DNA of 64,000 nucleotides from positions 688 through 64,687 of IMG/VR virus record IMGVR_UViG_2808606779_000004, one strand, 5' to 3'. Positions 23,228 through 42,600 of the stretch are shown here, in pieces. The DNA comes from a virus (taxonomy: Duplodnaviria; Caudoviricetes). A model generated the notes under the pieces. That model had not been told where the DNA came from and made no database searches. It saw only the letters and a list, made by a program, of their open reading frames with translations. A program made the position numbers and the translations under genes. Position 1 is the first letter of the stretch. Each line of letters starts with the position of its first letter.

Positions 23228-23259
23228 GGCATCGTCGCAGGTCAGAGCCTCGCTGGCGA

Positions 23260-23856: not shown

Positions 23857-23860
23857 CGCG

Positions 23861-24094: not shown

Positions 24095-24096
24095 GG

Positions 24097-25315: not shown

Positions 25316-25500
25316 GGCAGCGGTCCGCCGAGTGCGGTAACCACTTCATCGACGGTCATGCCGGCTTCGTATGCGTCGCGAATTGGCCTGTTAGCTGCGG
25401 CCATCGCTGCATCGAGTTGCTGCTTGCGGTGTTTCACTTCCGCCCCGATATGAGCGAGTTCGGCGCATATGGTGTCGCGGTCGATCATGCTGCGGGCCAT
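25312..25500 (-). CDS. Small HTH-like protein
   Basis: IRDAYEAGMTVDEVVTALG. Confidence 0.5.
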   Translation of the reverse strand: MARSMIDRDTICAELAHIGAEVKHRKQQLDAAMAAANRPIRDAYEAGMTVDEVVTALGGPLP

Positions 25501-27010: not shown

Positions 27011-27014
27011 CGGT

Positions 27015-27815
27015 TCAGTTCCCTTCGGTGGTGGTGGCCTGGACGTAGGGGTAGGGCCAGCCGCAGCGGTGCGGGTTCTCGCAGTAGCAGGCGTCTTTCG
27101 CGCAGGTGTGCGCTCCGGACTGGCAGCCGGGGCAGGATCCGCGGCCGGTGTTGGCCAGCGTCTCGGCGAGCTCTACGAATCCGGTCATCGCGGCGTGTGC
27201 GCGCTTCAGGACGTCCGGGGCGGGTTCGGCCACGCCGGGGAACGGTGACCGGCCGAGCACTTCGTTGAGAGTGATCGGAAGCTGAACCAGCGCGCCTGAT
27301 TTGAGCGTGACAGCGACACCGAGGTCGGGAAACGCCGGGTTTGGCGGGACGGTCACGGACGGAAGCCAGCGCTCGGCGTCGAGGGTGAGCCGTTCGCCGT
27401 CTTCGTGGGTCTGAACGTCACTGGCCAGGATCGAGTGAATTCGCTTGCCGTCGACCAGGATCTCGACGTGGCGAAACGGCGGGTGCTGCGGCGCGCAGCT
27501 CTGGACTTCGCCGTGTTCGGGGATAGCGCGCGCCGGAGGGTTGCCGTCCTCCGACTGGCCCAGGCTTGCCGGCGTCTGCTCACTTTCGCCGATTTGACGC
27601 GCCGCAGCGGCTTCGACGGTAGCGAGATCGGGGCTCTCGGGTGTGTGAGCTACCGCAGCCAGGTATGCGGCTTCGGCGACCTTGTCCCAGCACGGTTCAC
27701 CGTCGAGCGTTCCCCATTCGTCGCGATTCCAGTAACCGGCGCCTTCGATCTCGCCAGCTTCGTGTTGGCGATCCAGCTCATCGAAGATCGCCGCTTTCGT
27801 GCGTTCGACGGTCAC
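27015..27815 (-). CDS. Hypothetical protein
   Basis: 266 aa, C-terminal CPGC...H.C...C..C motif. Confidence 0.55.
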   Translation of the reverse strand: MTVERTKAAIFDELDRQHEAGEIEGAGYWNRDEWGTLDGEPCWDKVAEAAYLAAVAHTPESPDLATVEAAAARQIGESEQTPASLGQSEDGNPPARAIPEHGEVQSCAPQHPPFRHVEILVDGKRIHSILASDVQTHEDGERLTLDAERWLPSVTVPPNPAFPDLGVAVTLKSGALVQLPITLNEVLGRSPFPGVAEPAPDVLKRAHAAMTGFVELAETLANTGRGSCPGCQSGAHTCAKDACYCENPHRCGWPYPYVQATTTEGN

Positions 27816-28135
27816 CAGGCCGATCCCTTCGTGATGGCGAGCAGCATTGCGAACGCGACGAGCGCCAGGACGATCCCGAATCCGATCAGCGCGGCTGAGA
27901 TGAGGTCGTGGCCACGCTCGTTGTCGAGGTCCGCGGCGACGAGCTCGGCGAGCGTCGGGATCCGCGTCAGTGCCTCGCCGGTGTCGACTGCGATCGCGAT
28001 GTAGGTGTGTCCAAGGGGTCCGAACGGCCGGCGCGGATCGATTGGCTTCATGCTGGTTTCGGTGCGGCGGTAATCGAGCAGGCCGGCCGCGTCGCCGAGC
28101 GGGAAACGAGCCTCGAGGATGGGATCAGCGGGCAT
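27812..28135 (-). CDS. Membrane protein
   Basis: C-terminal hydrophobic helix. Confidence 0.55.
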   Translation of the reverse strand: MPADPILEARFPLGDAAGLLDYRRTETSMKPIDPRRPFGPLGHTYIAIAVDTGEALTRIPTLAELVAADLDNERGHDLISAALIGFGIVLALVAFAMLLAITKGSAW

Positions 28136-28541
28136 CGTCGGACCTCGCGATCTCGGGGTCGGTGTCGCCGAGTCGCAGACGTATCCACTCGGTGAACGGG
28201 ATGCAGTGGATCCGCCAGCTCTGCAACTCGTCGCGGTGCGCTTCGAGCGGCTGCCACAACAGTTCTGGCGTATGAAGGATGGTCAGCTTGATCTGGTCGC
28301 TGATCCCGCGCACGGTGACGTCGGCGGAGTTCATTCCCATCGGTCCGGCGGACGGGGCGATGACGACCAGGCCGGGAATCATGCGGGTCTCGCGGTGAAC
28401 GAACGGGTCGCCGGGCGTGTGGTGCGCGACCTGGACCTCGATCGGCTGCCGGGACAGCACCGCCTTGAACCGGGCGCCCTCGGCGCTGAGATCGGCGGGC
28501 CATGCCCGAACTAGGACATCGGTTTGGAGAGCAGTGGTCAT
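28125..28541 (-). CDS. Hypothetical protein
   Basis: 138 aa, coupled to the whiB-like gene. Confidence 0.5.
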   Translation of the reverse strand: MTTALQTDVLVRAWPADLSAEGARFKAVLSRQPIEVQVAHHTPGDPFVHRETRMIPGLVVIAPSAGPMGMNSADVTVRGISDQIKLTILHTPELLWQPLEAHRDELQSWRIHCIPFTEWIRLRLGDTDPEIARSDDAR

Positions 28542-28951
28542 GTGTGGCTGGTTCCTTCCTGTGACGATCGGAGTCGAGCGGGGTTGCTGCGGGTGTGGTC
28601 GCGGTCGAATTCGTCTCGGCCGCCCCACAAGCCATTGGGGTCCTGCAAGCTGGCCCGGTACTGCTCGCAGGCCGCTTTGACGGGGCAGGATTCGCAGAGC
28701 GCTTTGCCGAGAGCGATATTGGCCGCGTATTCGCGTTTCGCGCGGTGGCTGCGGCCGGAGACTGGGAAGAACATCAGGTCGAGTTGGCGGCCGAGTTCGC
28801 GTTTCTCGGCGGGGGTTGCGTCGGGCGACAACACGTTCCGGCATTCGGCTTCACTCATCCAGTCGCGGTCGAGGTCGCCGAGGATGCCGCGCAGGAACCC
28901 GGGGCGTCCGCGGCGCGGGATCCGGGTCCGGTCGTAGTGCCCGACAGGCAT
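28538..28951 (-). CDS. whiB: WhiB-family transcription factor
   Basis: W...A.C...FFP...C..CPV...C...GLWGG. Confidence 0.9.
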   Translation of the reverse strand: MPVGHYDRTRIPRRGRPGFLRGILGDLDRDWMSEAECRNVLSPDATPAEKRELGRQLDLMFFPVSGRSHRAKREYAANIALGKALCESCPVKAACEQYRASLQDPNGLWGGRDEFDRDHTRSNPARLRSSQEGTSHT

Positions 28952-29382
28952 CAGATCGCCTTCAGTGCTGCGACGATGTCGGCCGGTGGGGTCCAGAGTC
29001 CGAGTGCGCCCTTGCAAGGGATCGGCTCGGGAAGCGGTCGCGGGTTTTCGAGCACTAGGTGTGTGATGCGGCGGCGTTCCCGTCCGCCGTGCTCGACGTA
29101 CGCGGACTCTCCCCACGGTTGGCAGCATCCGGCGTCGGGGTGGCAGTCGACCAGGTCGACCACACCGAGGATTGCGCCCATGTGCATGTCCTCAAACAGT
29201 GGGCCGCCGGCTTGGCGCCACGCATCGGCGACGAGCGGGGACTCAGCACCGCGGTCGGACCAGCGCGCGCCAGCGTGGATGGCCAGAGGTCCGCGGTAGG
29301 ACCAGAGTTGTGTCCGGTTCTCGATGAGCTTGCCGTGGAAGATGGCCCATGCCCACGGCTGTTGAACGGTAAGCGCTTTCAC
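28951..29382 (-). CDS. ASCH-domain protein
   Basis: KALTVQQPWAWAI..GK.IENR.....YRGPLAIHAG. Confidence 0.9.
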   Translation of the reverse strand: MKALTVQQPWAWAIFHGKLIENRTQLWSYRGPLAIHAGARWSDRGAESPLVADAWRQAGGPLFEDMHMGAILGVVDLVDCHPDAGCCQPWGESAYVEHGGRERRRITHLVLENPRPLPEPIPCKGALGLWTPPADIVAALKAI

Positions 29383-29383
29383 T

Positions 29384-29998
29384 TCACACTCCCTGGAATC
29401 GTCGTGAGCCGATCGCGTTGATCGGCGGGGCGGCAAGGTCTTCCGGCCACTGGACTGTCACCAGTCCTTCCAGGTGCCGGCGGCGCGTGGCGAATGGGAG
29501 TTGCCAGCCGAGACGCTTCGCGCACATCGCGGCGCACACGGCAGCGTCGGCGATATCGTGATTCGGGATGTGAATTCCGGGCCACCACTTCGACACCTCG
29601 GCGAGGATCTGTTCCTTTTCGGCCCGGCCGTAGCCGGTGGCCCACGCCTTCAGCGTCGGCGGCTGGATGATCGCCCGCGGGATCTTCCTGGCCCACAATG
29701 CCGACCAGATGCCGTACCAGAGCGCGCCGCGTTCGAGGTACGACGGCAGCGCGTTCTTCGGCGGGATCATCGCCTCGATCAACACCAGTTCGGGCTGGTA
29801 CTTGTCGATGACGCTGGTGATTTTCTGCGCCTGTGACACGATCCGCTCGGCGGACTCATCGAAACCGGACGTGTTCGGCAGTGAATAGCCGCAGTCGCGT
29901 AGCACTTTCGGGCGAGCGATGCCGTCCGCACCGAGCTTCAGCACGGTCATGCCGGTGCGGGTCAGGCTCGAATCGATACCCATCACGTGCCGGCTCAT
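29384..29998 (-). CDS. RuvC-like Holliday junction resolvase
   Basis: MGIDSSLTRTG, VLIE, P.TLK..ATG.G.A.K, DIADA motifs. Confidence 0.85.
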   Translation of the reverse strand: MSRHVMGIDSSLTRTGMTVLKLGADGIARPKVLRDCGYSLPNTSGFDESAERIVSQAQKITSVIDKYQPELVLIEAMIPPKNALPSYLERGALWYGIWSALWARKIPRAIIQPPTLKAWATGYGRAEKEQILAEVSKWWPGIHIPNHDIADAAVCAAMCAKRLGWQLPFATRRRHLEGLVTVQWPEDLAAPPINAIGSRRFQGV

Positions 29999-30186
29999 CG
30001 GCCTGCCTCGATCCGGTGTAGCCGCTTCCCGGGCATCGTGGCGGTTTCGTCCCGTCCACCGAGCGCGAGTTCGACTGACAGGTCGCCGATGTGGCGGGCC
30101 AACGCTTTCGCGGTGGTGTCGTCGCCACGCTTGGACACGATGCCGGTCGCGATCCGGAGCGCGGTCAGATCGTCTTGTGCGCTCAC
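29995..30186 (-). CDS. Hypothetical protein
   Basis: Coupled small ORF. Confidence 0.5.
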   Translation of the reverse strand: MSAQDDLTALRIATGIVSKRGDDTTAKALARHIGDLSVELALGGRDETATMPGKRLHRIEAGR

Positions 30187-30323
30187 CGGAACACCACCGG
30201 GCCGCAGCAGGTGCAGATGTCCGTACCGGGCCGCGTGGGGCGTCTACAGACGGCGCACTGGCCGGACTGGACACGAACCTCAGGCCCGCTGAAGTCGAGT
30301 TTCGACAGGTCGATGGTTGTCAC
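30183..30323 (-). CDS. Small zinc-finger protein (46 aa)
   Basis: MTTIDLSKLDF...CAVC...CTCC; GTGA overlaps at both ends. Confidence 0.5.
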   Translation of the reverse strand: MTTIDLSKLDFSGPEVRVQSGQCAVCRRPTRPGTDICTCCGPVVFR

Positions 30324-30601
30324 TGGACACCGTCCTTGGCGGACAGTCGGCGGATTGCCTCGGTGAGCAGTTCGGCGGTGAATGTCAGCGCGTTGGACAT
30401 GTCGGGTGGCAGGGTGTCGCGCGGGTCCACTTCGTGGAGGACTGTGGCGACTCCGACGATGAATGCGTGATCTTCGCCGTTCAGCGCGACGGAGTCCCTG
30501 TAGCCCTGGATGATGGCGTCGAGCGCTTGCTTGGCTTGCGCACGCTGCTGGTCGACCTGCGCGAGGTGAGCGGTGGTTTCGTTGGGGTCGATGGTGGTCA
30601 C
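30320..30601 (-). CDS. Hypothetical protein
   Basis: 93 aa helical ORF, coupled. Confidence 0.5.
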   Translation of the reverse strand: MTTIDPNETTAHLAQVDQQRAQAKQALDAIIQGYRDSVALNGEDHAFIVGVATVLHEVDPRDTLPPDMSNALTFTAELLTEAIRRLSAKDGVQ

Positions 30602-30867
30602 TGTTCGGCTGCCTTCCGTGCGAGGGTGATTCGGGTCGGGTGAGCTGGCATGTGGTTCAGCGGGTGTGGTTCCTCGCCGGTGAACCGGGCCACGCACGGC
30701 GCGCCTACCGGCATTCCGCAGCCCTTCGGCGGCGGCGGACAGGCGACGGTCTCGGCGAGCTTCTTCAGCTCGGCGGATTCCTTGCGGGCGTTGGCCTGCC
30801 GTGCGTGCCACTGCTGGCCGCGGCTGTAGTCCTGGCGATCGTCGTCCAGGTCGACCGGCCTAGACAT
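30598..30867 (-). CDS. Zinc-finger protein
   Basis: VACP...C.M..G.PC......H..R. Confidence 0.55.
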   Translation of the reverse strand: MSRPVDLDDDRQDYSRGQQWHARQANARKESAELKKLAETVACPPPPKGCGMPVGAPCVARFTGEEPHPLNHMPAHPTRITLARKAAEQ

Positions 30868-31231
30868 CGATCGACCTTCCGAACACCTTTGCGCCGCCGA
30901 CCAGTTCGGCCATGCGTCGCCGGTTGGCTTCGAGCTCTGCGTCGCGGCGATCCTCACGGGCTTCACGCTCGGCGCGCGACTCGCGCTCTGTGCGATCTCG
31001 CCGGATCGCGATCGAGGATTCGATGAGATCCTTCGGCAGCGGCCGGAACCCGTCGCCGTGGTCTGCGTACATCTTCGAGACGCCGGCGAGGACATCCTCG
31101 AGTCCGAGTTCGCGGCGGGCGATCTGGCCGGCCCATGCTTCGACGGTGGCCCGGTTCGGCTGCGGGAACCACGGGTCGTGTGCTGCGCAGTATGCGAGTG
31201 CTCGCGCGGCGATCTGGTGGTAATCGTTCAC
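30860..31231 (-). CDS. Replication accessory protein (loader-like) after the initiator
   Basis: DPWFP.P....V.AW...V..MY...FRPLPKD pattern; follows rep. Confidence 0.6.
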   Translation of the reverse strand: MNDYHQIAARALAYCAAHDPWFPQPNRATVEAWAGQIARRELGLEDVLAGVSKMYADHGDGFRPLPKDLIESSIAIRRDRTERESRAEREAREDRRDAELEANRRRMAELVGGAKVFGRSIDV

Positions 31232-32142
31232 TGTCCGAGCGCCTTCCGGTCTGTGTGTGCGGGTGTGGAGTTGCCGCCGAGTGCTGCCCAGCCGGCGACC
31301 TTGGCTTCACCGGCAGTGAGTCCGCCTGTTGATCGGCCGACGGACTGCGCGAGCGCGGTCTGTTCGCGGACGACGTCGGCCGCGATGTGGGGCAGCAGTC
31401 CCGTCCCGGATCCCGGTTTCGCGGCCCAGCGGCGAAGCGACTCGGCGACGACTTCGGCCGGCATTCCGTCGCCGACCATGAGCTGAGATGCCGAGAGCCG
31501 AAGCGCGGTCTTGACTGCGGCGGGGATGTTGCTCGGGATCAGCGTTGCGACGAGCCGGGACGCTGACGGGTCGACTGGATCTGATCGACCGCGTTCTTGC
31601 CCGCGCTCCGGCCCGCGCCGCTCGCCTACGTTTCGTGACGGTGCGTGACCAACTTCAGCGCTATATGTCTCTGTCTCTGTCTCTGTCTTAGGGTCGCGAT
31701 CGTCCGGCCGATGTCCGGCCGAGGTCCGCTCGGACGTTTCGCCGTTTCCTCTGGTAGAGGGATTGCGCCGACCGCTACGTTCGTTCCGCTTACGTTCTGC
31801 GTCTGCGTCGCGATATGCCTTAACTTCGGCGCGGGAACGTTGGTACTTAACCCACTTCGTGAACTGAATGCCGCCGTCCCGGGCCTCGACCCACAACGGA
31901 TCCGACTCGCCGTCAGGGCCCTTCGTTGCCTTCAGCGCCGCGCGGATTGCGTCCGTGCAACCGAGTTCTTTCAGCGTCTCCGGGCCGACGTAGCCGTCCT
32001 GAAGTTTGTTAGCTGAGAAGGTGCCGCAGAGGGTCCACACGCCGACCGCGGCCGCACGGATGCGGCGCGGAATCGACTTGACCTCTGGCCCGTCATAGAA
32101 GCCAAGAGGGACGTTGAAACCCGGGGGGCGGCGCTCGGCCAT
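31228..32142 (-). CDS. Phage replication initiator (lambda O/RepA-like)
   Basis: A.GVW.L.G......L.DG.V; YQRSRAEV...R.....RK; low-complexity middle with short repeats. Confidence 0.7.
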   Translation of the reverse strand: MAERRPPGFNVPLGFYDGPEVKSIPRRIRAAAVGVWTLCGTFSANKLQDGYVGPETLKELGCTDAIRAALKATKGPDGESDPLWVEARDGGIQFTKWVKYQRSRAEVKAYRDADAERKRNERSGRRNPSTRGNGETSERTSAGHRPDDRDPKTETETETYSAEVGHAPSRNVGERRGPERGQERGRSDPVDPSASRLVATLIPSNIPAAVKTALRLSASQLMVGDGMPAEVVAESLRRWAAKPGSGTGLLPHIAADVVREQTALAQSVGRSTGGLTAGEAKVAGWAALGGNSTPAHTDRKALGQ

Positions 32143-32325
32143 TACGCGCGATCTCCCTTCAGAATCGTTGTGGTGGTGGTCATGTGCCGGACATCTCCCC
32201 GCCGATCGTGAGCGGCTGATGTCGGGCGCAGCAGGGGCAGACAGCGACGATCGCGGGGGTCTTGAATGCCTGGCCGCAGTGACGGCAGAGCAGCGTGACG
32301 AGCGCCGCCACAGCGGCCCGGGCCG

Positions 32326-33333
32326 TCACGCGCCGGCCTCGAAATCGAGGGTGGCGCCCTGCAAGCGTTTCGGGTGCGTCAGGGACAGGTCGAGGTATTC
32401 AGCGTTGATGTCGATTCCGATGTAGCGCCGGCCTGTCCGCTGTGCCGCGACACCTGTTGTCCCAGACCCGCTGAATGGGTCCAACACCGTGCCACCAGGC
32501 TTGCAGCCGGCAAGGATGCACCGCTGTGGCAGTTCGACGGGATATACCGCGAAGTGCGAGCCAGGGAACGGCTGTGTCGGGATGCTCCACACGTCGCCCG
32601 GATTGCGGCCGGCCGCCGCGGCGGCCACGTGCCGTGTCCCGGTCGCGACCATGTTCGTCTGCGGAGTCTGCCCGGGTGGCGCGGTGTGGTCCTTGCGCCG
32701 GCGGTCGCTCTTGCCGTTGGCGCGATAGGACGGATCGCTGGGATCGAGTGAGCTGCAAGCGATGCGGATCGGATCGAGGTCGAACCAGTAGCGTCGCGAC
32801 TTGCTGAACAGGAACACCAGCTCGTATCGCCCGGATAGCCGGTCTGTGACACTCTCAGGCATCGCATTCGGCTTGTGCCAGATGATGGCGTTCCGCAGGA
32901 TCCAGCCGGAGTCTTGGAGCGCGAAGGCGACACGCCACGGAATGCCGAGCAGGTTCTTCGCTGGCCGGTCGGCGGACTTGGAGGGAACGTTTTGCATGAG
33001 CCGGACGCGGCGCCCCTGTAATGCGCTGGTCTCGCCGGGGTCGGTGTGTCCACCTGCGGCTGAGTAGCTGTCGCCGAGGTTGAGCCACAGCGTTCCGTCG
33101 TCGGCCAGCACGCGGCGCAGCTCGGCGAACAGGTCGCGCATGTTGTCGACGTACTCGGCCGGTGAATCTTCCAGCCCGTATTGGCCTTCGGCGTGGTAGT
33201 CCCGCAGCCCAAAGTAGGGCGGGCTGGTCACGATGGCATCCACGGCGCCGGCGTTCAGTTCGCGCGTGATGTCGAGCGCTCGACCGTGATACAGGGTCAC
33301 CTGGTCGTCGGTGTAGTAGGGCGCGGGGGTCAC
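32326..33333 (-). CDS. Orphan DNA methyltransferase (N4-C/N6-A, beta class)
   Basis: IVTSPPY (motif IV) before VLDPFSGSGTT (motif I); no neighbouring REase. Confidence 0.92.
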   Translation of the reverse strand: MTPAPYYTDDQVTLYHGRALDITRELNAGAVDAIVTSPPYFGLRDYHAEGQYGLEDSPAEYVDNMRDLFAELRRVLADDGTLWLNLGDSYSAAGGHTDPGETSALQGRRVRLMQNVPSKSADRPAKNLLGIPWRVAFALQDSGWILRNAIIWHKPNAMPESVTDRLSGRYELVFLFSKSRRYWFDLDPIRIACSSLDPSDPSYRANGKSDRRRKDHTAPPGQTPQTNMVATGTRHVAAAAAGRNPGDVWSIPTQPFPGSHFAVYPVELPQRCILAGCKPGGTVLDPFSGSGTTGVAAQRTGRRYIGIDINAEYLDLSLTHPKRLQGATLDFEAGA

Positions 33334-33515
33334 TCGTTACCGCCGACGAATCGGAGCCGGCTGTCGGCGATTTCGAGCTTGCGGGTCCGGACGCTGGTGG
33401 TGTTGGTGGCGGGGTCGTAGCTGACGGTGGTGACCTCGTGCCGGATGCCGTTGGCGTCCGGGCCGAGCCGGGTACCGGGCGCGAACTGGCCGGTCTTGTT
33501 GCCTCGGAAGTTCAT
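33330..33515 (-). CDS. Hypothetical protein
   Basis: Coupled small ORF. Confidence 0.5.
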   Translation of the reverse strand: MNFRGNKTGQFAPGTRLGPDANGIRHEVTTVSYDPATNTTSVRTRKLEIADSRLRFVGGNE

Positions 33516-33682
33516 CAGTAGTCCCTCGGTCCGTTGAGTTCGAGATCTCGGGCATCGTTCGCGGTGTGCAGCTCGTCGGCGACGCGCTCCAGCGCGGTCA
33601 CGGCGCGCTCGGCGAGCTTCATCGCGTCCTTCGCGAGGTCCATCAGGTCGCGGGCCGGGACGAGACCGGATAGCAGGCTCAT
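33515..33682 (-). CDS. Hypothetical protein
   Basis: Coupled small helical ORF. Confidence 0.5.
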   Translation of the reverse strand: MSLLSGLVPARDLMDLAKDAMKLAERAVTALERVADELHTANDARDLELNGPRDY

Positions 33683-34074
33683 TTCGTGGTGACGACCTTC
33701 GGTAGTGGCGCGAGGAAGACGGTTGCGCCGAACTGGTTCTCTTGGTCGGCGATCCAGGTGAGGATCCCGGTGTCGGTGGTGGCCCGGGTCTTCGTGACTG
33801 CTTTGAGTTCTGGCCGCTGGCGCAGGATCTCGGGCCGGCACACTGCGATCGCGGTATCGATCAGCTCGGCCCGGGGGATACCGCGGGCGTCCGGGTCGTC
33901 GGGGTCGACGCTGCGGTCCTTCAGTAGGAAGCCGAGGATCCGGTAGAGGTTGCCGAGGGTGCAGAACGGGCGGTCGTTGGATCCGTGCAGCACGGTCAGC
34001 ACTGCGGCCAAAGGGAATTCGTCCCCGTTCATCGCGTTCACGGGGTTGTCGGGGGCAGTGTCGGGGTGCGTCAT
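33679..34074 (-). CDS. Hypothetical phage protein
   Basis: FPLAAVLTV...R.FC....LY.IL.FL pattern. Confidence 0.55.
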   Translation of the reverse strand: MTHPDTAPDNPVNAMNGDEFPLAAVLTVLHGSNDRPFCTLGNLYRILGFLLKDRSVDPDDPDARGIPRAELIDTAIAVCRPEILRQRPELKAVTKTRATTDTGILTWIADQENQFGATVFLAPLPKVVTTK

Positions 34075-34406
34075 CGGATCGGCTCCGTCCGGCCGGTGCC
34101 TTCCCAGCTGACGACGGTCAGGTCGACGTGCTCAGGCTTGTCTTCGTCGTCGCCGAGGATGGCTAGGAGATCGGCGGTTTCGATGAGAGCGCGGGGATCG
34201 GCGCCGTCGACCAGTGCGCGGATTTCGCGGAGCTTCCGGCCGGCCGGGTCGCCGAACAGTCGGCGCGCGACGTCGACTGCGTCCGAGGCGTTCTCGTAGC
34301 CCTGGTGGGAGTAGACCAGCAGGTTGCCGTTCGGGTCGCTGGCCCGGATGTCGTACTTGCCGGCCATCGCGCCGTCGCGATGTGGCTCGACCTTGACGTC
34401 GATCAT
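34071..34406 (-). CDS. Hypothetical protein (DUF1508-like N-terminus)
   Basis: KY.IR..D.NG.LL..S.QGYEN..DA. Confidence 0.5.
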   Translation of the reverse strand: MIDVKVEPHRDGAMAGKYDIRASDPNGNLLVYSHQGYENASDAVDVARRLFGDPAGRKLREIRALVDGADPRALIETADLLAILGDDEDKPEHVDLTVVSWEGTGRTEPIR

Positions 34407-34705
34407 GTTGGCTCACTTTCACTATCAGGGGCAGGCGCCTTCATGCGCTGTAGCGCCTGGACCAGGCGGGCTTTGTGTGCCTGGCTCTTGAACTGCTCGG
34501 CGAGTCGCTGCCGGGCGCGCTGCTGGCCGTAGGCGACGAGCGCGCCGAACACGATCCAGCCGCAGACGAATCCGGCGATGCAGGCGCCGACGATCAGCCA
34601 TCCGGCGGGGTAGCGGAACGCGGCGGCGATCGATGCGCCGAACACGATCGCGGCCAGGATCAGGTTCGAGATGATCCGCTGTTTCGCCTGCCGTATCCCG
34701 TTCAT
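34403..34705 (-). CDS. Membrane protein with two TM helices
   Basis: Two hydrophobic stretches, basic C-terminus. Confidence 0.6.
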   Translation of the reverse strand: MNGIRQAKQRIISNLILAAIVFGASIAAAFRYPAGWLIVGACIAGFVCGWIVFGALVAYGQQRARQRLAEQFKSQAHKARLVQALQRMKAPAPDSESEPT

Positions 34706-34935
34706 GCGGGCTGGCCTTCCGGTTGTGGCCGCAGAATCGCGATGTCCCACTCCGACATGTCGTAGGGGTCGACAAAACTGGACGGCAACGCGCCGCCGTA
34801 TGCCAGCCCGGCGAGCGACAGACCCGGGCCGGTGAACACGAACGCGGGCCCGATACCCAGTGGGTCTGCGACGGTCTGCGCGCCGTCCGCGATCAACTGC
34901 TCGGCGCGCTCCGCGGTGATGGTGAGCTGAATCAT
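34702..34935 (-). CDS. Hypothetical protein
   Basis: Coupled small ORF. Confidence 0.45.
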   Translation of the reverse strand: MIQLTITAERAEQLIADGAQTVADPLGIGPAFVFTGPGLSLAGLAYGGALPSSFVDPYDMSEWDIAILRPQPEGQPA

Positions 34936-35174
34936 GCGAACACCACTTCGATTCCAAGTCCGGAGAGATCGCGGACCTTGACAGGCCGGCCGATACGCCG
35001 GAAGTTCCTGTCGTAGAACGTGACGGTCGGCTGGCGGCGCTCGGCGCGGACCTCGGCGGCGAGCTGCGCCCAGAACCGGATCAGCGCGGCGTCAGCAGCT
35101 CGGCGGTTGCGGCGCCGACCACGGATCCCGAACGGTCCGCACGCCGGGCAGCGGAGTAGATGAGCGAGTGTCAT
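34932..35174 (-). CDS. Hypothetical protein
   Basis: Coupled small ORF with CPAC. Confidence 0.45.
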   Translation of the reverse strand: MTLAHLLRCPACGPFGIRGRRRNRRAADAALIRFWAQLAAEVRAERRQPTVTFYDRNFRRIGRPVKVRDLSGLGIEVVFA

Positions 35175-35464
35175 TAGTCGAGTCCCGTCTCTGGCGGTGC
35201 GAGCCGGACCAGCGCAGCCAGTTCCTCGAACGTCTCTGCCAGAAACTCGCGGCGCTCATCGGACTTGGGTAGCCAGAACGTGATCGCGCTGCGGTCGTCG
35301 TCCTCCGGCGGGTGATGCAGCCGTTCCGAGCTGTGCAGGAACATGCGAACAGCGCTGTAGGTGAGGCCGGTGTTAGACGTCTTGGTGTCCAACTCATAGG
35401 CAGGGTGGTCCGGCGCCTCGGCGTAATCGGTGATCAGCTCTTGGCTGTAGACGTTGATACGCAT
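35174..35464 (-). CDS. Hypothetical protein
   Basis: MRINVYSQEL...HH...DDDRSAITFW; coupled. Confidence 0.55.
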   Translation of the reverse strand: MRINVYSQELITDYAEAPDHPAYELDTKTSNTGLTYSAVRMFLHSSERLHHPPEDDDRSAITFWLPKSDERREFLAETFEELAALVRLAPPETGLD

Positions 35465-35898
35465 CAGCGGATCGCCACCGATCCTGTTGGCAGCCAGCCG
35501 GGCTCATCCGACAACACCGTGGCGTCGGTGACCGGGTACTCCTCGTAGGCCACGGTGCCGCGCTCGCGGTAGTAGCCCTGTGAGCAGCTGCTGAAGTATC
35601 CGAACGTGCAGTAGCCGCGAACCCAGCCTGCCGGTACCCAGACCTCGCGGGCCCGGGTCCACGATCCGTCCGCTCGACGTGGGGTGTCGCATACCGTGCG
35701 GCGCTGTGCACCGAACAGTCCCCAGTGGATCGTTTCGCAGCCCACACCGGGGGCGGCGGCGGCCCGCGGCGTCGACAGGCCCATAGCGCCGCCGAAGATC
35801 AGCATCGCGGCGAGCAACCAGGCGAGCGGAATGATCCGCTCGCGGACGACGGAACGACGCGCCACCGCGCCGCCCGCCATCCCACGAGACCGCGACAT
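35464..35898 (-). CDS. Secreted protein (CDGP-domain-like)
   Basis: Signal peptide ending AAA; C......G..RRT.CD.P...DGSW.R.R...YPV...VL.DEPG. Confidence 0.7.
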   Translation of the reverse strand: MSRSRGMAGGAVARRSVVRERIIPLAWLLAAMLIFGGAMGLSTPRAAAAPGVGCETIHWGLFGAQRRTVCDTPRRADGSWTRAREVWVPAGWVRGYCTFGYFSSCSQGYYRERGTVAYEEYPVTDATVLSDEPGWLPTGSVAIR

Positions 35899-36317
35899 CA
35901 GGCTTCGCCGCCCTTGTCGTCGCTGAACGCCGGCCCGCTGGTGTCGAGCTCGTCGTCATCCTCTTCGTCGCCGTCGTCCTCACCGGCAGCCTGCGGGGTG
36001 ACCTGCCCGTCCTTGTCGAACATGCCGGTCTGGACCTGATCTGTGGGCGGCTTCGACCCAGCCGGGCCGACCCATTCGACCTTGAGCGAGCGCTTGGGCC
36101 GCAACTCGCCATCGGCCATCAGCTGATGCCCGTCGCCGATGCACTTCACCCGGACAACCAGGGTCAGGCTGTCGCCGATCTCCGGCGGGTTTTCGAGCTT
36201 CATATTCGTAGCCCGGAAACCGATGTAGGCGCCGCCGGTGTCGACGCTGTTGTCTCCGTGCTTGTCGAGTTCGTTGGTCGACGGGTGGTCAGAGGCTTTG
36301 GTGGTGTCCACGCCCAT
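35898..36317 (-). CDS. Beta-rich protein with acidic tail (possible ssDNA-binding protein)
   Basis: Beta-rich core plus EDDGDEEDDDE tail near recT; function inferred. Confidence 0.35.
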   Translation of the reverse strand: MGVDTTKASDHPSTNELDKHGDNSVDTGGAYIGFRATNMKLENPPEIGDSLTLVVRVKCIGDGHQLMADGELRPKRSLKVEWVGPAGSKPPTDQVQTGMFDKDGQVTPQAAGEDDGDEEDDDELDTSGPAFSDDKGGEA

Positions 36318-36340
36318 GTTGTCCCGATTCCTATCTGTGT

Positions 36341-36550
36341 TCAGCGGGCTTGTGCCGCTTGGTTTCCGCTGCCCGGTTGGGCGGCGGCGTCTTCGATGAC
36401 GGCGATACGGACCGCGCGTCGGTTCCCGGCCAGCGGCGTCCGAAAGTCAAGTAGGCAGTTGTCCGGGTGGCCTGCCTTGTCCGCATCGCTGACGAGCCGG
36501 CGCAGGTGGCCGAGGGTCAGCGATTCGCCGCGGGGATCGACTCCGGTCAT
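36341..36550 (-). CDS. Hypothetical protein
   Basis: Small ORF after recT. Confidence 0.45.
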   Translation of the reverse strand: MTGVDPRGESLTLGHLRRLVSDADKAGHPDNCLLDFRTPLAGNRRAVRIAVIEDAAAQPGSGNQAAQAR

Positions 36551-36554
36551 GGCG

Positions 36555-37733
36555 CTACTCGGCGGTCTCTGCGGGGGATTCGTCGGCGGTGGCGGCGTCC
36601 TGGCGCAGCGTTTCGAGGTTCAGCCACTCCGTAACGTCGGAGTCGAGGGTGCCGGCCTGCTTCCGCGAGATCAGACCGTTCCGGAGCTGCTGAAGCTCGT
36701 CGTCGGTGAGTTCCTTCGAGGATCCGATTTCGCGGCCGACGATCTCGCGGATCACGATCAGCCGGTCAGCGCGCTTGTCGTCCCCGTTCAGGCCGAGCTC
36801 ACCGAACGTCGCGAAGATCGCCGAGTTCAGCCGGGTTCGGGCCGACTTGCGCAGCTCGGCCATCTCCTCACTCGGCCGGACATTCGTCGGCTGCGCGGCC
36901 GGCACTTCCTCGGCCGCCGGCTGAGGGTCGTCGGGGACGATCTCGGCGTCGACCGGTTCCTCGGTGGCCTGCTGCGCTGCCTGCTTCCGCTCCCGGGCCG
37001 CGCGAACACCGGCCACACCGGATCGCGGCCGACGCTGCGTCTGCGAGGCCGGCGGCTGTGACCAGTCCTCGGTGTCCAATTCGTCGGACGAGAACGGCAT
37101 TCCGAGCAGAATGTGCGGTGCGATCTCTCGGCACACCACCGCCGTAGCCTTCGCCCGGAGCATGTTCTTCGGCTCGGTGATGTACTTCATGTTGCCTTGG
37201 AGCTTGTTATTCGAATTCTTCTTGTACTCACCGGGTTTGCCCTCAATCTCGACGGGCACGTACTGCGCTTTGATGGCGTCCTCCATCGTGAAGCGGCAGC
37301 GTTCCGACTCGGACCCATCCGGAGACCACGCCTCGATATCGCAAGCGGTATCGCTGATTTCGTGGGTCTTGAACTTGTAGCCCTTGGCCTTCAGGATCGC
37401 CTTCATCGTGCGGGCTTCCAGCCCGGGTTGTCCGTGGATGACGATCACCGAGCGAAGCGACGCAATGGGGGATAGGCCGATCTCTGCGCCGAACAGAATC
37501 GCCGCGGCACCGTCGCCGGGCTTGCCGCGGAACCGGTCCGGAACCAACGCGCTGTAGCACATGCCTTCGGCGAAGAACTTTGCGTCGCGCATCGCGCCGA
37601 CGTGCTCGCGCAGGGTGGTAATCGCCGCCATATCAGGCAGGCGGGCCGGCGGAAGAACTTCCAGTGTCCCCGAGTCGAGTTGGTCCTCGTATGCCTCGAT
37701 GGTGTCTTCGAGGTCGGTCGTGAAGTCGGTCAT
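36555..37733 (-). CDS. RecT-like single-strand annealing protein
   Basis: VP..FRGKP.D.AAAIL.G.E.GL.P..SL..V.VIHG.P...KNML.A.A; follows the YqaJ nuclease. Confidence 0.8.
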   Translation of the reverse strand: MTDFTTDLEDTIEAYEDQLDSGTLEVLPPARLPDMAAITTLREHVGAMRDAKFFAEGMCYSALVPDRFRGKPGDGAAAILFGAEIGLSPIASLRSVIVIHGQPGLEARTMKAILKAKGYKFKTHEISDTACDIEAWSPDGSESERCRFTMEDAIKAQYVPVEIEGKPGEYKKNSNNKLQGNMKYITEPKNMLRAKATAVVCREIAPHILLGMPFSSDELDTEDWSQPPASQTQRRPRSGVAGVRAARERKQAAQQATEEPVDAEIVPDDPQPAAEEVPAAQPTNVRPSEEMAELRKSARTRLNSAIFATFGELGLNGDDKRADRLIVIREIVGREIGSSKELTDDELQQLRNGLISRKQAGTLDSDVTEWLNLETLRQDAATADESPAETAE

Positions 37734-38128
37734 GCTGCGGCCTTCCGTTGCTGGTTGGAGACGTGAGTTCCGTGTTTGACGGAATCGAGGACGTTCGCGC
37801 TGCGGGTGTCCCACCGCAGGTTGTCGACGTGGTTATTGCTGGGATCGCCGTCGCCGTGGCACGCTTCGAGCCCATCGGGACGCGGGCCAACGAACGCGGC
37901 GAGCACCAGAGCGTGAACGCGGAGCGTGCGCGGACCGGTACCACGGCCATAGAGCCGAACGACGGGATGGCCAGATTTCAACGGGCACAACGTCAGAAGC
38001 TTCGGATTGCGGCGATAGGTGCGGCCACGGCGGTCAGTCCGAACACGTCCGAGAGACCGCACGCGACCACGGTCGGACACCTCGTAGAGGCCCACATATC
38101 CGGGGACCGAACGCCATACCTCCATCAC
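37730..38128 (-). CDS. NUMOD4/HNH homing endonuclease
   Basis: EVWRSVPGY.GLYEVSD.GRVRS; VH.LV..AF.G..P......H.DG...NN...NL.W. Confidence 0.9.
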   Translation of the reverse strand: MMEVWRSVPGYVGLYEVSDRGRVRSLGRVRTDRRGRTYRRNPKLLTLCPLKSGHPVVRLYGRGTGPRTLRVHALVLAAFVGPRPDGLEACHGDGDPSNNHVDNLRWDTRSANVLDSVKHGTHVSNQQRKAAA

Positions 38129-39045
38129 TTCGCCCCCTTGGCCACGAACAGCGCGACCGATCCACGTGACGACGGCTGCCGGCGGGCGATCAGAGTCCCG
38201 TTGCAGCGGGCGTACTGCGCGTTCTTCATCGCGTCGAGAACTCGGGTCTTGGCCAGTCGCGCGGCGGTCTCGACCACCTTCAGATCAGCTGTGGCGGTCA
38301 GGTATTCGTCGGCCAGCTCCGAGGACAGCTCGACCTCGGCGCCCTTCTCGATGTCGGGGTGTTGCAGCCGGACCGTCTCGTAGGTGGCGACGCTGTCATC
38401 CAGCTCGGGCGGGGTGTCGCCGCCGAGCGACCGGTAGAACCGCCGGCATTCCTCGATGATGAACATCGCCTCTTGCTTGGCGTCGGTGTCGTAGGCGACC
38501 TCGTAGATCCGCTCGTCACCGAGGCGGGGCCCGATGGCCAGCAGTTGGCCGGGCAGATCCGTCCAGCCGGTGAACAGCATTGAGACGAGTACCTGCGTCC
38601 AGTAGTCGGCCGGCAGATCGCCCGACAGGTCATCGCCCCACTTGTCGGAATCGTTCTGGTCGCGGGCCATCTTGAACTCGACCACTCGGCGGCTGCGGCC
38701 CCGGACGCCGCGACGGTCGAGGGTGGCCATCGCGGGAAAGCCGAAATGGTCGGGGTCCACGACGAACTGGACCTCGCCGGGGGACAGCAGCCAGCCGGGG
38801 TTCTTGCGGCGCCACCGGTTGGCCGCGAACGGTTCGACGTCGTGACCGAGGTCGTAGGCGTCCTTCGGTTCCTCGTCGGGGAGTATGCCTTTCATGCGGC
38901 ACCACAGCGAGTAGGGCGATTCCCACCGGGACAGGCCCAGGATGGCGCCCACCTTGCTCGGCGAGATCGTGGCCAGGTGCTCCGGCGATCCGGGTGTGAT
39001 CCAGTCCGTGTCGCCCGGCTGGTGGACTGCGATGATGTGGTTCAC
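38125..39045 (-). CDS. RecE/YqaJ-like exonuclease
   Basis: ISPSKVGAILGLS.WESPY.LW; ATLD; VEFK; YWTQ motifs. Confidence 0.88.
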   Translation of the reverse strand: MNHIIAVHQPGDTDWITPGSPEHLATISPSKVGAILGLSRWESPYSLWCRMKGILPDEEPKDAYDLGHDVEPFAANRWRRKNPGWLLSPGEVQFVVDPDHFGFPAMATLDRRGVRGRSRRVVEFKMARDQNDSDKWGDDLSGDLPADYWTQVLVSMLFTGWTDLPGQLLAIGPRLGDERIYEVAYDTDAKQEAMFIIEECRRFYRSLGGDTPPELDDSVATYETVRLQHPDIEKGAEVELSSELADEYLTATADLKVVETAARLAKTRVLDAMKNAQYARCNGTLIARRQPSSRGSVALFVAKGAK

Positions 39046-39602
39046 CAGGTATCCCCGTCTGTGATGGATTCGTAGAGGTCGCGGCACCACTCGACGTCGC
39101 CGAGGGCGGTGTGCCGCTTGTATTCGTCCGGGTCGAGCCCGACGAGCCGGGTCAGTTCGTCTGATTTCCAAGGCCGGGGCGGTGTGCGTCCGTGAATGCC
39201 GGTCAGCCAGCCGACCGCGATCGTCGGCACGTCGAGCGGGTGGTAGTGCCATTCGGGCTCGATGTCGAACTCGGCCAGCAGATCCCCGAGGCGTTCCATA
39301 TCGAAACCGGGGTTCGATCCGGCGATCACAGCCTTACCGGCGACGATCTTGGCGATCCGGTCCGCCGCGTCGACCATGTCGATTGCCTGATCGAATCGGT
39401 ATCGCGCTTGGTAGTCCCGTTGGAACCACTCGGGCAGCGTTGCGGCCCAGTCGATCCCGTACCGCTTCTGCTGGTGGCGGATCTGGAAGTGTTCGCGCGC
39501 CGACTCGGTCCCGTCGTCCTCGATCCGGATCGCGGCGAACTCCCAGATCGGGGCACGGCGGTCGAGGCCAAGAGTTTCCGTGTCGAGGAATGTTGTTGTC
39601 AC
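39042..39602 (-). CDS. DnaQ-like 3'-5' exonuclease
   Basis: FLDTETLGL, N..FD, HTALGD (DEDDh). Confidence 0.88.
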   Translation of the reverse strand: MTTTFLDTETLGLDRRAPIWEFAAIRIEDDGTESAREHFQIRHQQKRYGIDWAATLPEWFQRDYQARYRFDQAIDMVDAADRIAKIVAGKAVIAGSNPGFDMERLGDLLAEFDIEPEWHYHPLDVPTIAVGWLTGIHGRTPPRPWKSDELTRLVGLDPDEYKRHTALGDVEWCRDLYESITDGDTW

Positions 39603-39811
39603 AGTTGAACCCACGTCCAGGTCGTCGCGGTCGGTGTCGGGGTGGAGCGCAGCCAGTAGCCGTCCACGAGGCCGGCGAGCATCGTGATCTCGGTCAGCGT
39701 CGTGTCGGCTTCGTAGCGCTTTGCGGGCTGGCCGGGGCGGCGGGTCAGCGACCAGACAAGAGAGCGGTTGTCGCGGATCAGGACGATTCCGGTCGTCGTC
39801 TTCGGCGGCAT
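39599..39811 (-). CDS. Hypothetical protein
   Basis: Coupled small ORF. Confidence 0.45.
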   Translation of the reverse strand: MPPKTTTGIVLIRDNRSLVWSLTRRPGQPAKRYEADTTLTEITMLAGLVDGYWLRSTPTPTATTWTWVQL

Positions 39812-39963
39812 CACGCCACCGCCCGCGCGGCGAGTTCGACCGGCTTGCCGGACATCTCGCAGAACGAGTAGCGGCGCCGGTGCTTGTCCGTAATCATGTG
39901 CACTGCGACGCATCCCACGCTGTTCTGTGGCACGTCACGCTTGCAGATCGGGCAGCGGATCAT
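39811..39963 (-). CDS. Small zinc-finger protein (50 aa)
   Basis: CPIC.R.V......H........C..SG; overlaps at both ends. Confidence 0.55.
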   Translation of the reverse strand: MIRCPICKRDVPQNSVGCVAVHMITDKHRRRYSFCEMSGKPVELAARAVA

Positions 39964-40793
39964 GACGCCACCGCCTCAGGCTGAAGCTCGATCCCGAACT
40001 TCTTGTAGCGCTTCTGAAGTGCATCGATGGTGATGTGCATCGCGGCTGCAATCTGCGCGTCGCTGTGGCCCAGTGCCCGGTGGTCGGCGACGATGTCGGC
40101 GAAGTCCGGCGGAATAACGATGTGAGTCGGACGCGGCGGGACACCTTCAGGGACTGCGTTCGGATCGTCCAGGGCGGCAGTCGATTCCCACGCGAACGGG
40201 GCGGCCCACCCAAACTGACGGGCCTGCTTGCGTGCGTCGGCGCTCGGTCCGGGCACCATGTGCAGCTGGTCGTAGAGACCCGCGATCGCGGCGGCCAGGT
40301 CCGCGTGAATCATCGGCGGACGCTTCACCGCTACCGTGGCGAGTTCCTGATCGGTGACATGGATTCGGTGTGCGATCTCGAACAGCGGGTAGCCGAGAGC
40401 AACCAGGGCTTGAACGCGACGGATCGCGCCGAGCGCTGCTACCTGGTTCTCGGGGATCTGGACCGCGAAGATCCGGTCAGCGGTCTTGCGGTGCACGCGA
40501 GTAAGCGGCCGGCGGCGGTCGTGGTCGCTCTGTCCTCGCAGGATGAGCTGGATCCGCGTTGGCTGGACACCGGCGGCCCGGGCGATGGCGGCCTGGTGGA
40601 GCCCGGCGGCGAGCAGTGCCTCGATGTGCTGCCGGACGTGCTCGGGGTCGACGCCGAACGGGTCGAATGTGCCGTCCTCGATGGCAGCGGCGCGCCAACG
40701 CTGGTAGCACTTGGCGCACATGCCTCGCCGGAGCTTCTTGAACTCTCGGCTGCACTTGGCGCAAGTCGGGGTAGTAGTGTCGGGGTCTGACAC
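39960..40793 (-). CDS. Multi-HTH DNA-binding protein
   Basis: VRQHIEALLAAG...IARAAGV; RRVQALVA.G; GWAAPFAW; C-terminal HTH. Confidence 0.75.
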   Translation of the reverse strand: MSDPDTTTPTCAKCSREFKKLRRGMCAKCYQRWRAAAIEDGTFDPFGVDPEHVRQHIEALLAAGLHQAAIARAAGVQPTRIQLILRGQSDHDRRRPLTRVHRKTADRIFAVQIPENQVAALGAIRRVQALVALGYPLFEIAHRIHVTDQELATVAVKRPPMIHADLAAAIAGLYDQLHMVPGPSADARKQARQFGWAAPFAWESTAALDDPNAVPEGVPPRPTHIVIPPDFADIVADHRALGHSDAQIAAAMHITIDALQKRYKKFGIELQPEAVAS

Positions 40794-40852
40794 GGATTGA
40801 CCTCCAATGTCGTGACGCCGGTTCCGCGCCCACCGCGGACCGGCGTCGGTCG

Positions 40853-41299
40853 TTAGTGGGTGGTAGAAGCGGGGCGCGCCGGGCCGGGTGAGGGGGACAC
40901 CGGCCCGGCGCTCTCACCACTGCCATCCCCAGCAGTGGTGGGAATCCAATTCATCGCGGCGAGCACGTCGGCGACGACGCCGGCCCAGAACGGGTACGGA
41001 TGCAGAGGGTGCTTAGCTGCGAGTTGTTCGGCTGCCCGGTCCTTGCGGGCGTCGAACGTGATGGTTGGCCATTCACCCTGGACGCGTTGTAGAGCTCCGC
41101 AGTTGTCGCAGATCGGATCGGCCGGTTGGCGGGATCCGACCACGCCGACCAACTGGCCGACGCTGTCGACCAGGGCGCCGACGAGACTGAGTGCCTGCTT
41201 CTCGAATTCGGTCATGCCGGCGCGCCGCTGCGCTTCCTCGGCGGACCGCTGGATCGCGGCCTGTTCGTCCGGCGACTGCCAGTCGCCCCACCCCGACAT
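40853..41299 (-). CDS. Hypothetical early protein
   Basis: 148 aa downstream of cro. Confidence 0.5.
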   Translation of the reverse strand: MSGWGDWQSPDEQAAIQRSAEEAQRRAGMTEFEKQALSLVGALVDSVGQLVGVVGSRQPADPICDNCGALQRVQGEWPTITFDARKDRAAEQLAAKHPLHPYPFWAGVVADVLAAMNWIPTTAGDGSGESAGPVSPSPGPARPASTTH

Positions 41300-41490
41300 C
41301 AGGAATCGCCGCCGGAGGGGTGGCCCAGGCCAAGGCACTGCGACGGCCCCGCCGTCGATGCAGAACGTGTACTGGGAGCTGGCCGTGTCCTGATGTGCCG
41401 GTAGGTGGCGGCGTCCCATTCGCGTGTGACGCCGTCACCGTCATCGGTAATGAGCCGGTCGCCGGCCAGGGCGACAACGCGGGCGTTCAC
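41299..41490 (-). CDS. Hypothetical early protein
   Basis: GTGA overlap with the cro stop. Confidence 0.4.
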   Translation of the reverse strand: MNARVVALAGDRLITDDGDGVTREWDAATYRHIRTRPAPSTRSASTAGPSQCLGLGHPSGGDS

Positions 41491-41690
41491 GCGCTGGCCT
41501 TGGTCGTATCGATGAATTCTGGAAACCATCCGCGCACGGTTTCGCGACTGACGACGACGCCGGTTTGCTCATGGATCTCGTCTGCGATGGATTGCCAGCT
41601 GTGGCCGGAGCGGCGAGCTGCGCCGACCAGCGCTCGTAGGGTTCGACCTTTGAGGCTGAGCTCAATCAGGTGCCTGGTTGGAGTTGCCAC
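41487..41690 (-). CDS. cro: Cro-like HTH protein
   Basis: SWQSIADEIHEQTGVVVSRETVRGWF; divergent from the repressor. Confidence 0.8.
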   Translation of the reverse strand: MATPTRHLIELSLKGRTLRALVGAARRSGHSWQSIADEIHEQTGVVVSRETVRGWFPEFIDTTKASA

Positions 41691-41814
41691 GCGCTAAAGC
41701 TTGCACTGCAAGCTAATAGCTGTCAACGACCGAGTATCAGTGTGTAGATGCTAGATGCAGGTCACACCGGCAAAAATATTGCAATTGCGGCAGATGGCGT
41801 GTCATGATCAGCGC
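41691..41814. promoter_or_regulatory. Divergent cro/rep promoters with a palindromic operator
   Basis: Minus strand TTGACA (41726-41721)-N17-CAAGCT; AGCTTGCA-C-TGCAAGCT at 41698-41714; plus strand TTGCAA (41779)-N18-CATGAT (41803), 6 nt before ATG 41815. Confidence 0.7.
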
Positions 41815-42129
41815 ATGACGATTGCAGTGGATAACGGCGCGTGGCGACCGAGGGACACTCTGGCTGCACGCTTCAAGTTGCTCCGCGGCGAGTTGGATAT
41901 GTCGCAGCGGGAGTTCGCGATGGCGACGGGGATACCCGTGTCGCAGGTTCAATCCATCGAGGACGGAAAGAGTCCTCGCGGCCTCGACGTCAAAGTGAAG
42001 AAGGTGGTCGACGCTTTCAAGGTCGATCGGGACTGGCTGATGTGGGGTGGCGAACTTGCCGATCCCACAACGCCAATCCCGCCGGATGGGTGCCCCCACC
42101 AGGGCTCGAACCTGGGACCTGCGGATTAA
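41815..42129 (+). CDS. Immunity repressor (XRE HTH), prophage form ending inside tRNA-Lys
   Basis: LAARFKLLRGELDMSQREFA..TGI...E.GKSPR...VD.DWL.WGG; last residues and TAA encoded by the tRNA antisense strand. Confidence 0.9.
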   Translation: MTIAVDNGAWRPRDTLAARFKLLRGELDMSQREFAMATGIPVSQVQSIEDGKSPRGLDVKVKKVVDAFKVDRDWLMWGGELADPTTPIPPDGCPHQGSNLGPAD

Positions 42130-42163
42130 AAGTCCGTAGCTCTACCAACTGAGCTATAGGGGC
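42091..42163 (-). tRNA. tRNA-Lys(UUU); 3' half is the prophage att core
   Basis: GCCCCTATAGCTCAGTTGGTAGAGC...GACTTTTAATC...GGTTCGAGCCC...GGGGGCA cloverleaf. Confidence 0.97.
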
Positions 42164-42296
42164 GCGAGAAGACAGGGTACAAGATGGTCGAAATTGGTGT
42201 TGCGACCACCGGGTTTGAAGATTTGGGCATCCGTACCCTAAGCTATCGAAGCTCCCAACGGACACGTTGTGAACACCCCGGAGAGATTCGGATTAG

Positions 42297-42369
42297 GCCC
42301 CCATCGTCTAGTGGCCTAGGACGCCGCCCTTTCACGGCGGTAGCACGGGTTCGAATCCCGTTGGGGGTA
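42297..42369 (+). tRNA. tRNA-Glu(UUC)
   Basis: Cloverleaf, loop CTTTCAC, GGTTCGAATCC. Confidence 0.97.
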
Positions 42370-42404
42370 CGCAACACGGAAACGTGGAGCATGCTGGAAA
42401 GTAA

Positions 42405-42481
42405 GGCCCTGTGGCGCAGTTGGTTAGCGCGCCGCCCTGTCACGGCGGAGGTCGCGGGTTCGAGTCCCGTCAGGGTCGCCA
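42405..42481 (+). tRNA. tRNA-Asp(GUC)
   Basis: Cloverleaf, loop CTGTCAC, ends GCCA. Confidence 0.97.
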
Positions 42482-42522
42482 TCACGGCGAGGCAGTTCGG
42501 TTTGCGAGAGCCGGTGCCTTCC

Positions 42523-42596
42523 GGCCAGGTAGCTCAGTTGGTACGAGCGTCCGCCTGAAAAGCGGAAGGTCGCCGGTTCGATCCCGGCCCTGGCCA
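42523..42596 (+). tRNA. tRNA-Phe(GAA); likely attachment site of the right-hand island
   Basis: Cloverleaf, loop CTGAAAA; integrase gene ends 140 bp downstream. Confidence 0.97.
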
Positions 42597-42600
42597 CTTC

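Follow-up and report, generated by a model that had tools for sequence, protein, structure and literature searches.

The locus analysed here raises the question of how a phage repressor gene comes to end inside a bacterial tRNA gene, and whether integration of the phage thereby sets which form of the repressor is made. It lies in a stretch of 64,000 nucleotides (the window; bases 688-64687 of a 64,687-base IMG/VR provirus record). We consider it highly probable that a Rem711-like temperate siphovirus has integrated here in tRNA-Lys(UUU) of a Mycolicibacterium of the fortuitum group, that its rep-side junction lies in the window, and that it has the type of integration-dependent immunity described for phage BPs. 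The rep-side junction is attL in the Hatfull convention.

The repressor gene and its junction with tRNA-Lys

The truncated, prophage form of the immunity repressor (rep), assigned by homology, is encoded on the plus strand at 41815..42129 (104 codons plus TAA) and carries an HTH_3 domain (PF01381, E 3.9e-07, Pfam). Because the homologues with which it aligns begin MT.A...W.P, the ATG at 41815, giving 104 aa, is favoured as the start over the upstream ATG at 41755. In the ORF list, this plus-strand frame has the C-terminal end ...PPDGCPHQGSNLGPAD, and the sequence reads TAA at 42127-42129. On the opposite strand, ARAGORN identifies tRNA-Lys(UUU) at 42089..42163, with its 5' end at 42163 and the anticodon TTT starting at position 34, which places U34 at 42130, U35 at 42129, U36 at 42128 and A37 at 42127. 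Thus, the antisense strand of the 3' half of this tRNA encodes the whole of repressor residues 93-104 (CPHQGSNLGPAD). The original prediction had the repressor frame entering the tRNA at 42091 and stopping at the complement of U35-U36-A37; the overlap is real, the tRNA starts at 42089 instead, which is a trivial difference, and the sequence and the ARAGORN coordinates agree on the position of the stop codon. Moreover, the overlap is not a product of chance, since the homologous repressors of several phages also read antisense through the 3' half of a tRNA.

Comparison with an empty attB of Mycolicibacterium porcinum (L020) and with the attP of two relatives, the contig L012 and phage Rem711, shows that this tRNA is a chimera. 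Its 5' part, from U35 outward (42129-42163), is host DNA, and its 3' part (42089-42115) is of the phage type. Between them lies a common core of 13 bp, GACCTGCGGATTA (42116..42128; tRNA positions 36-48), which was delimited with the empty M. porcinum attB and the attP of Rem711 and is the only sequence common to all six att sequences that we compared side by side, that is, attB, attP and both junctions. As the core is identical in all of these forms, strand exchange must occur inside those 13 bp. The repressor frame crosses the core and ends 1 nt beyond it. The stop codon made at the junction (42127..42129, plus strand) is therefore of mixed origin: T42127 and A42128 belong to the core and occur in attP too; host specificity begins with the final A, A42129, opposite U35, the sole host-specific base of the codon. 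Immediately to the right of the core, attB has A and all three attP sequences have T or C, which gives a Tyr codon. The idea that the host tRNA supplies the stop of the repressor thus holds for the third base of the codon and not for the first two.

To the left of the core, lysogeny also changes the T stem of tRNA-Lys, from the native GTAGG/CCTAC to the phage-type CCAGG/CCTGG (42099..42115), with CC at 42099-42100 and GG at 42114-42115 replacing the native GT and AC. These are two compensating base pairs; the stem still pairs, and ARAGORN finds the tRNA-Lys at the junction intact with its phage-type T stem. The same stem is present in the attP of Rem711 and of L012, and the native 3' part that was displaced is found both in the empty attB and at the int-side junction of a relative in M. 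porcinum (L017). On the host side, 42129..42598 contains the rest of tRNA-Lys followed by tRNA-Glu, tRNA-Asp and tRNA-Phe, all three on the plus strand (ARAGORN), and is 100% identical to the unoccupied M. porcinum site.

These features suggest the following switch. In the free phage, attP would lie inside the repressor gene, just upstream of a short tyrosine integrase, and the viral repressor frame would cross, in antisense, 40 nt that copy the tRNA 3' part, then a Tyr codon (TAT/TAC) and some 15-21 residues more, to end in -AA. Strand exchange within the core would place host A42129 after the ...TA of the core, creating TAA and a 104-aa repressor without the tail. By analogy with gp33 of BPs, the viral form is presumably unstable, its -AA tail serving as a degradation tag, and would be degraded and provide no immunity. 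By the same analogy, the truncated 104-aa form of the prophage would be stable and would repress the divergent early promoter. For this to apply here, the attP of the window prophage itself would have carried a base other than A at the position of 42129, as its relatives do.

The prophage body, its left end and a neighbouring element

The siphovirus prophage body occupies 1..41690 on the minus strand. Its early genes encode a YqaJ-type recombinase, an exonuclease, a methylase and RuvC. The prophage further encodes an HNH protein, a portal, a protease of the Clp type, a tape measure that contains a transglycosylase domain, minor tail proteins and Sipho_Gp37-type tail proteins. The ORF at the terminase position (20623-22317) has no Pfam match, and its match in Rem711 is annotated as the terminase large subunit. 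Over 62-64% of window 2000-24000, the virion module shares ~78% nucleotide identity with mycobacteriophages Rem711 and 32HC.

As had been noticed originally, no integrase lies on the phage side of the junction: the ~41 kb of phage DNA to its left contain no PF00589 integrase, and a PF00589 search of the record gave only two matches, neither of them the phage's own. One is the integrase of an island to the right of tRNA-Phe (42737-43954), which we rejected because it lies beyond three host tRNAs, where the identity to the empty site ends. The other is an unrelated recombinase at the extreme left, which was rejected because it shares only the catalytic motifs with the phage-type integrase P0015 and is 88% identical to plasmid genes. 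This left-end tyrosine recombinase, of at least 367 aa, is encoded on the minus strand, starts at window 417 and runs off the record (the region is window 1-700 plus the 687 nt of the record to its left, L018 1-1400); the genes that it resembles are multi-copy 'site-specific integrase' genes of Mycobacterium plasmids. Similarly, searches of the record for a second copy of the tRNA 3' half (by pattern with 3 mismatches, by BLAST and by k-mers) found none, the only weak match being tRNA-Phe.

At the left end of the prophage, the homology of the adjacent minor tail protein to gp27 of Rem711 stops ~8 codons before its natural end, near window 670-695. In Rem711, another ~10 kb come after this gene, with further tail genes, lysin A/B and int, and then rep; the counterpart of these ~10 kb, up to and including int, is absent from the window record. 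The int-side end of the prophage is therefore missing from the record, either because it lies beyond an inserted mobile element or because it was lost; insertion of a mobile element into the left end, or truncation by one, is probable. It is tempting to speculate that the prophage is now defective, its tail-lysis-int end having been cut off or displaced by the mobile recombinase element, so that excision can no longer take place and all that is left of the switch is a stable repressor giving permanent immunity. The early end of the gp27 homology, the plasmid-type recombinase next to it and the missing ~10 kb all point in that direction. However, the prophage may be complete apart from the insertion of a repeated element, with the end of the record simply falling inside that element, and all the other phage genes examined retain long open frames, so we regard the loss of the switch as possible but rather doubtful. 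In any case, it would concern the present state of the prophage and not the origin of the junction, and it is compatible with a BPs-type switch having produced the 104-aa repressor.

A second integrated element lies to the right of tRNA-Phe. This tRNA marks the limit of the identity to the empty M. porcinum site, which breaks off precisely at its 3' end (42598/42599), and the element occupies window 42599-64000, with its far end beyond the window. It encodes a tyrosine integrase (42737-43954, minus strand), an HTH_17 excisionase-like protein (44064-44321), a small serine recombinase (about 51298-51696), a type III restriction-modification pair (res 52317-54857, mod 54854-56938) and a DUF3644 protein.

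attP and the tailed repressor in relatives

The int-side junction of the window prophage lies outside the 64.7-kb record, and attP was reconstructed on close relatives. An exact protein look-up of the 104-aa form gave no record, and that of a 124-aa call of the same gene led to nothing more than a 1.2-kb contig sharing this junction. No phage matched the rep region by blastn. Of the two contig searches with rep, that among genome contigs gave only an irrelevant Luteolibacter match, and that among viral contigs gave a single 52% relative, located at a contig end.

The first informative relative is L012, a contig of 1.7 kb whose rep DNA is ~90% identical to that of the window and which has the order rep-attP-int. 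Its sequence is identical to the window through the 40-nt tRNA-like segment up to GGATTA and diverges after it. Where the window has TAA, L012 has TAT, and the frame runs on for 15 residues (YQPVVVPFPARKTAA), ending in -KTAA before a stop codon. Downstream lies a tyrosine-type integrase (PF00589), which has 85% identity with its counterpart in the M. porcinum prophage described below. The L012 tail was read in the frame of the window and not in the called gene: as assembled, its rep (539-883) carries a 1-nt insertion and a 3-nt deletion, and it was called as a frameshifted product of 114 aa (P0004). This reflects either an assembly error or a repressor-defective phage.

The second relative was reached through P0002, a protein 75% identical to the repressor and with the same C terminus, which is encoded on a 75.9-kb contig that we walked end to end by exact-protein look-ups. 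A flanking MFS protein on this contig is an exact Mycolicibacterium porcinum protein. The contig contains a complete prophage of 53.7 kb, which shares only the immunity/att region with the window phage, and its rep-side junction is identical to that of the window. Its int side (L017) consists of host genes, the native 3' half of tRNA-Lys, phage DNA and then the integrase, a tyrosine-type protein of 294 aa with the C-terminal end -LRAA. When the two sides are joined at the core (L011 + L017), the rebuilt attP encodes a repressor of 125 aa ending in -KARAA, vs 104 aa in the prophage, and the rebuilt attB can be folded into a complete tRNA-Lys. This rebuilt attB equals an actual unoccupied site, that of M. 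porcinum GCA_039645115.1 (L020). Thus, the check that had been proposed for this locus, when run on relatives, found rep reading on into an -AA tail beside a tyrosine integrase, both in L012 and in the M. porcinum prophage. The third attP comes from the virion DNA of Rem711, where the phage's repressor gene contains the identical 40 nt with TCAG directly after them, and its product ends in -KDAA.

These relatives bear on whether this is an ordinary repressor with no switch, in which case the identity between att sites would extend past the anticodon loop, attP would carry the same TAA, both phases would produce identical proteins, and the overlap with the tRNA would be a mere by-product of attP adjoining rep. 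That the whole anticodon loop belongs to the core in many tyrosine-integrase phages is established knowledge, and the attP of the window prophage is outside the record. However, all three attP that contain the 40-nt segment (L012, Rem711 and the rebuilt L011+L017) have T or C after GGATTA, and the frame beyond GGATTA is open, conserved at the protein level and ends in -AA. Indeed, the tails of L012 and of the rebuilt M. porcinum repressor share Y..VV..FP.RKT although their DNA differs at synonymous positions, which indicates that the frame is translated. In addition, the viral rep of phiGD57-1 has Tyr (TAT) where the matching M. abscessus prophage record ends at TA, and stops completed by the first bacterial base have been published for several clusters of M. 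abscessus prophages (PMC8092301). We therefore consider an ordinary repressor very unlikely, and the use of an integration-dependent immunity switch by this prophage, as originally proposed, is supported by the attP, the tails and the integrases of its relatives.

A scan of viral contigs for an attP of the L012 type gave nothing. Another, for int-side junctions, returned three other phages (IMG/VR) at tRNA-Lys-like sites with other repressors (L026, L027 and L028), which exemplify the general pattern and do not bear on the window phage. They have a tRNA-Lys-like 3' half followed by TCAG or CAAG, and none of the three encodes a homologue of the window repressor. The frame that crosses the tRNA-Lys-like segment of L026 ends in -DAA, and this gene is probably another integration-dependent repressor.

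The wider family supports the identity of the gene. By tblastn, the repressor is 45-48% identical to genes annotated as 'immunity repressor' in Gordonia phages and M. abscessus prophages. About 25 phage records carry this annotation at the same position and in the same orientation, and in every case the gene lies upstream of int and diverges from a small HTH gene. Records of the M. abscessus prophages begin at the att site, and a record note places attP within the repressor; the viral genome phiGD57-1 encodes a repressor of 129 aa with a tyrosine integrase directly after it. Among 14 homologues in a large protein database, seven end in -AA and six do not (three at the same tRNA-Lys stop and three with other short C-termini), the remaining one being the frameshifted P0004; the C-terminal CPHQGSNLGPAD is shared by 3 close relatives. 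That the ORF encodes some other small HTH regulator, such as an antitoxin or a Cro-like protein, which merely abuts the att site is extremely unlikely, for although Pfam finds only the generic HTH_3 domain, the position and orientation are conserved, the identity to annotated immunity repressors is 45-48%, and tailed and untailed forms coexist within this repressor family.

Divergent from the repressor, a small gene of 67 aa in the cro position (41487..41690, minus strand) is the first gene of the leftward early operon. It gives only weak, sub-threshold Pfam HTH matches; HTH genes hold this position in phiGD57-1, Santhid and Clown. The 124-nt spacer between both genes (41691-41814) contains a perfect palindrome of 17 bp, AGCTTGCA-C-TGCAAGCT (41698..41714), 8 nt upstream of the cro-like start, and a further half-site, TTGCAGTG, is found at 41822-41829. 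Conserved in L012 and L011 within a spacer that otherwise diverges, the palindrome is a candidate operator.

Frame use and comparison with known systems

Rem711 and 32HC (Trigintaduovirus) are related to the window prophage in their virion module, and the attP of Rem711 has the same 40-nt tRNA-Lys-like segment, with TCAG after it. The tyrosine integrase of Rem711 is 53% identical to that of the M. porcinum relative. Unlike the window repressor, that of Rem711 differs in sequence and reads the tRNA-like segment in another frame (GAPTRARTWDLRI...), in which the complement of the anticodon is not a stop. Rem711 (L019 13170-13320) and P0006/P0012 of Rhodococcus hoagii (...DLRIKS...) thus have repressors that translate this tRNA-Lys-like attP segment, or a similar one, in a frame other than that of the window; they likewise end in -AA.

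An attP with A opposite U35 would encode a viral repressor that is already truncated; hence, attP would have to lack this A and the core would have to end at U36. Moreover, the same 40-nt attP is used in two frames, that of the window repressor and that of the Rem711 repressor and P0006, which points to an exchange of int-attP cassettes, with the tRNA-like segment seemingly acting as a joint between exchangeable repressor and integrase modules. It also points to the target anticodon (UUU, antisense TAA) serving as a latent stop in one frame only. Taken as a whole, the proposal that the immunity switch sets the edge of att identity, that int-attP cassettes swap between repressor genes and that UUU is a latent stop in one frame is a tentative one, which we think has a minority chance of being right. 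If it were true and general, the sequence of a tRNA and the frame would predict which att sites can support such a switch.

Our understanding of the mechanism itself is unchanged, as it is established and widely annotated in actinobacteriophages. The analysis adds a natural example of integration-dependent immunity in the Mycolicibacterium fortuitum group, in which all four att forms are covered across relatives (one empty attB, three attP and both junctions) and in which a single host nucleotide changes the repressor from the tailed to the untailed form, at single-base resolution. In practice, gene callers will report tailed and untailed repressors as different proteins, and an immunity marker should be cloned as the 104-aa form rather than as the viral ORF.

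Integration-dependent immunity was described for BPs, Brujita and Charlie (Broussard et al. 2013, Mol Cell 49:237; PMC4557955; PMC3694055). In BPs, gp33 in its viral form has 136 aa, bears an ssrA-like tag and undergoes degradation; integration gives a stable and active repressor of 103 aa, and Int is likewise tagged (PMC4557955, PMC3694055). The penultimate Ala of gp33 has been exchanged in the mutant A135E. The window, read together with its relatives, shares with these phages the rep-attP-int order, the divergent cro-like gene and an attP placed within rep at a tRNA 3' end. As in BPs, the prophage repressor is short (104 aa here, 103 for gp33) and the viral form, seen here in relatives, is longer and ends in -AA; a short integrase ending in -AA is seen in the M. 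porcinum relative. In contrast to BPs, the target is tRNA-Lys and not the BPs site, and the extension has 15-21 residues rather than 33. BPs was not retrieved by the repressor sequence in the phage search.

The original note had described the mechanism as known, and this applies even more strongly than it said, since the exact way in which the stop is made had already been published. Dedrick et al. (2021) reported, for M. abscessus prophages, stops created by the first bacterial base and the use of attB sites that overlap tRNAs (PMC8092301). The repressor of prophi57-1/phiGD57-1 is homologous to that of the window (47.6% identity over residues 1-82), whereas the M. abscessus prophages differ from it in host genus, attB and phage cluster. 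Compared with them, in the window the stop is completed by the base that pairs with the middle anticodon position of the target tRNA. This point may be new, as may the use of the same tRNA-like attP in a different frame in the Rem711 repressor and P0006, although both are modest.

Similarly, integration-dependent immunity is known in Gordonia phages, where GMA5, GRU3, Jeanie and McGonagall use attB sites in tRNA-Lys (Pope et al. 2017; PMC5559632). Both stops completed by the first bacterial base and attB sites in tRNA-Lys are thus already on record, in M. abscessus and Gordonia phages. Among the latter, the Santhid group (Santhid, YungMoney and Clown) has repressors 44-48% identical to that of the window. 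Their viral repressors read a tRNA 3' half antisense in the same frame, where the T loop gives rise to a ...GSN... motif, and their C terminus, -VA or -AA, is closely followed by a tyrosine integrase. Unlike the window, however, these three phages carry a tRNA-Thr-like segment in which the complement of the anticodon is TAC, a sense codon, and the stop of their prophage repressors must therefore arise elsewhere.
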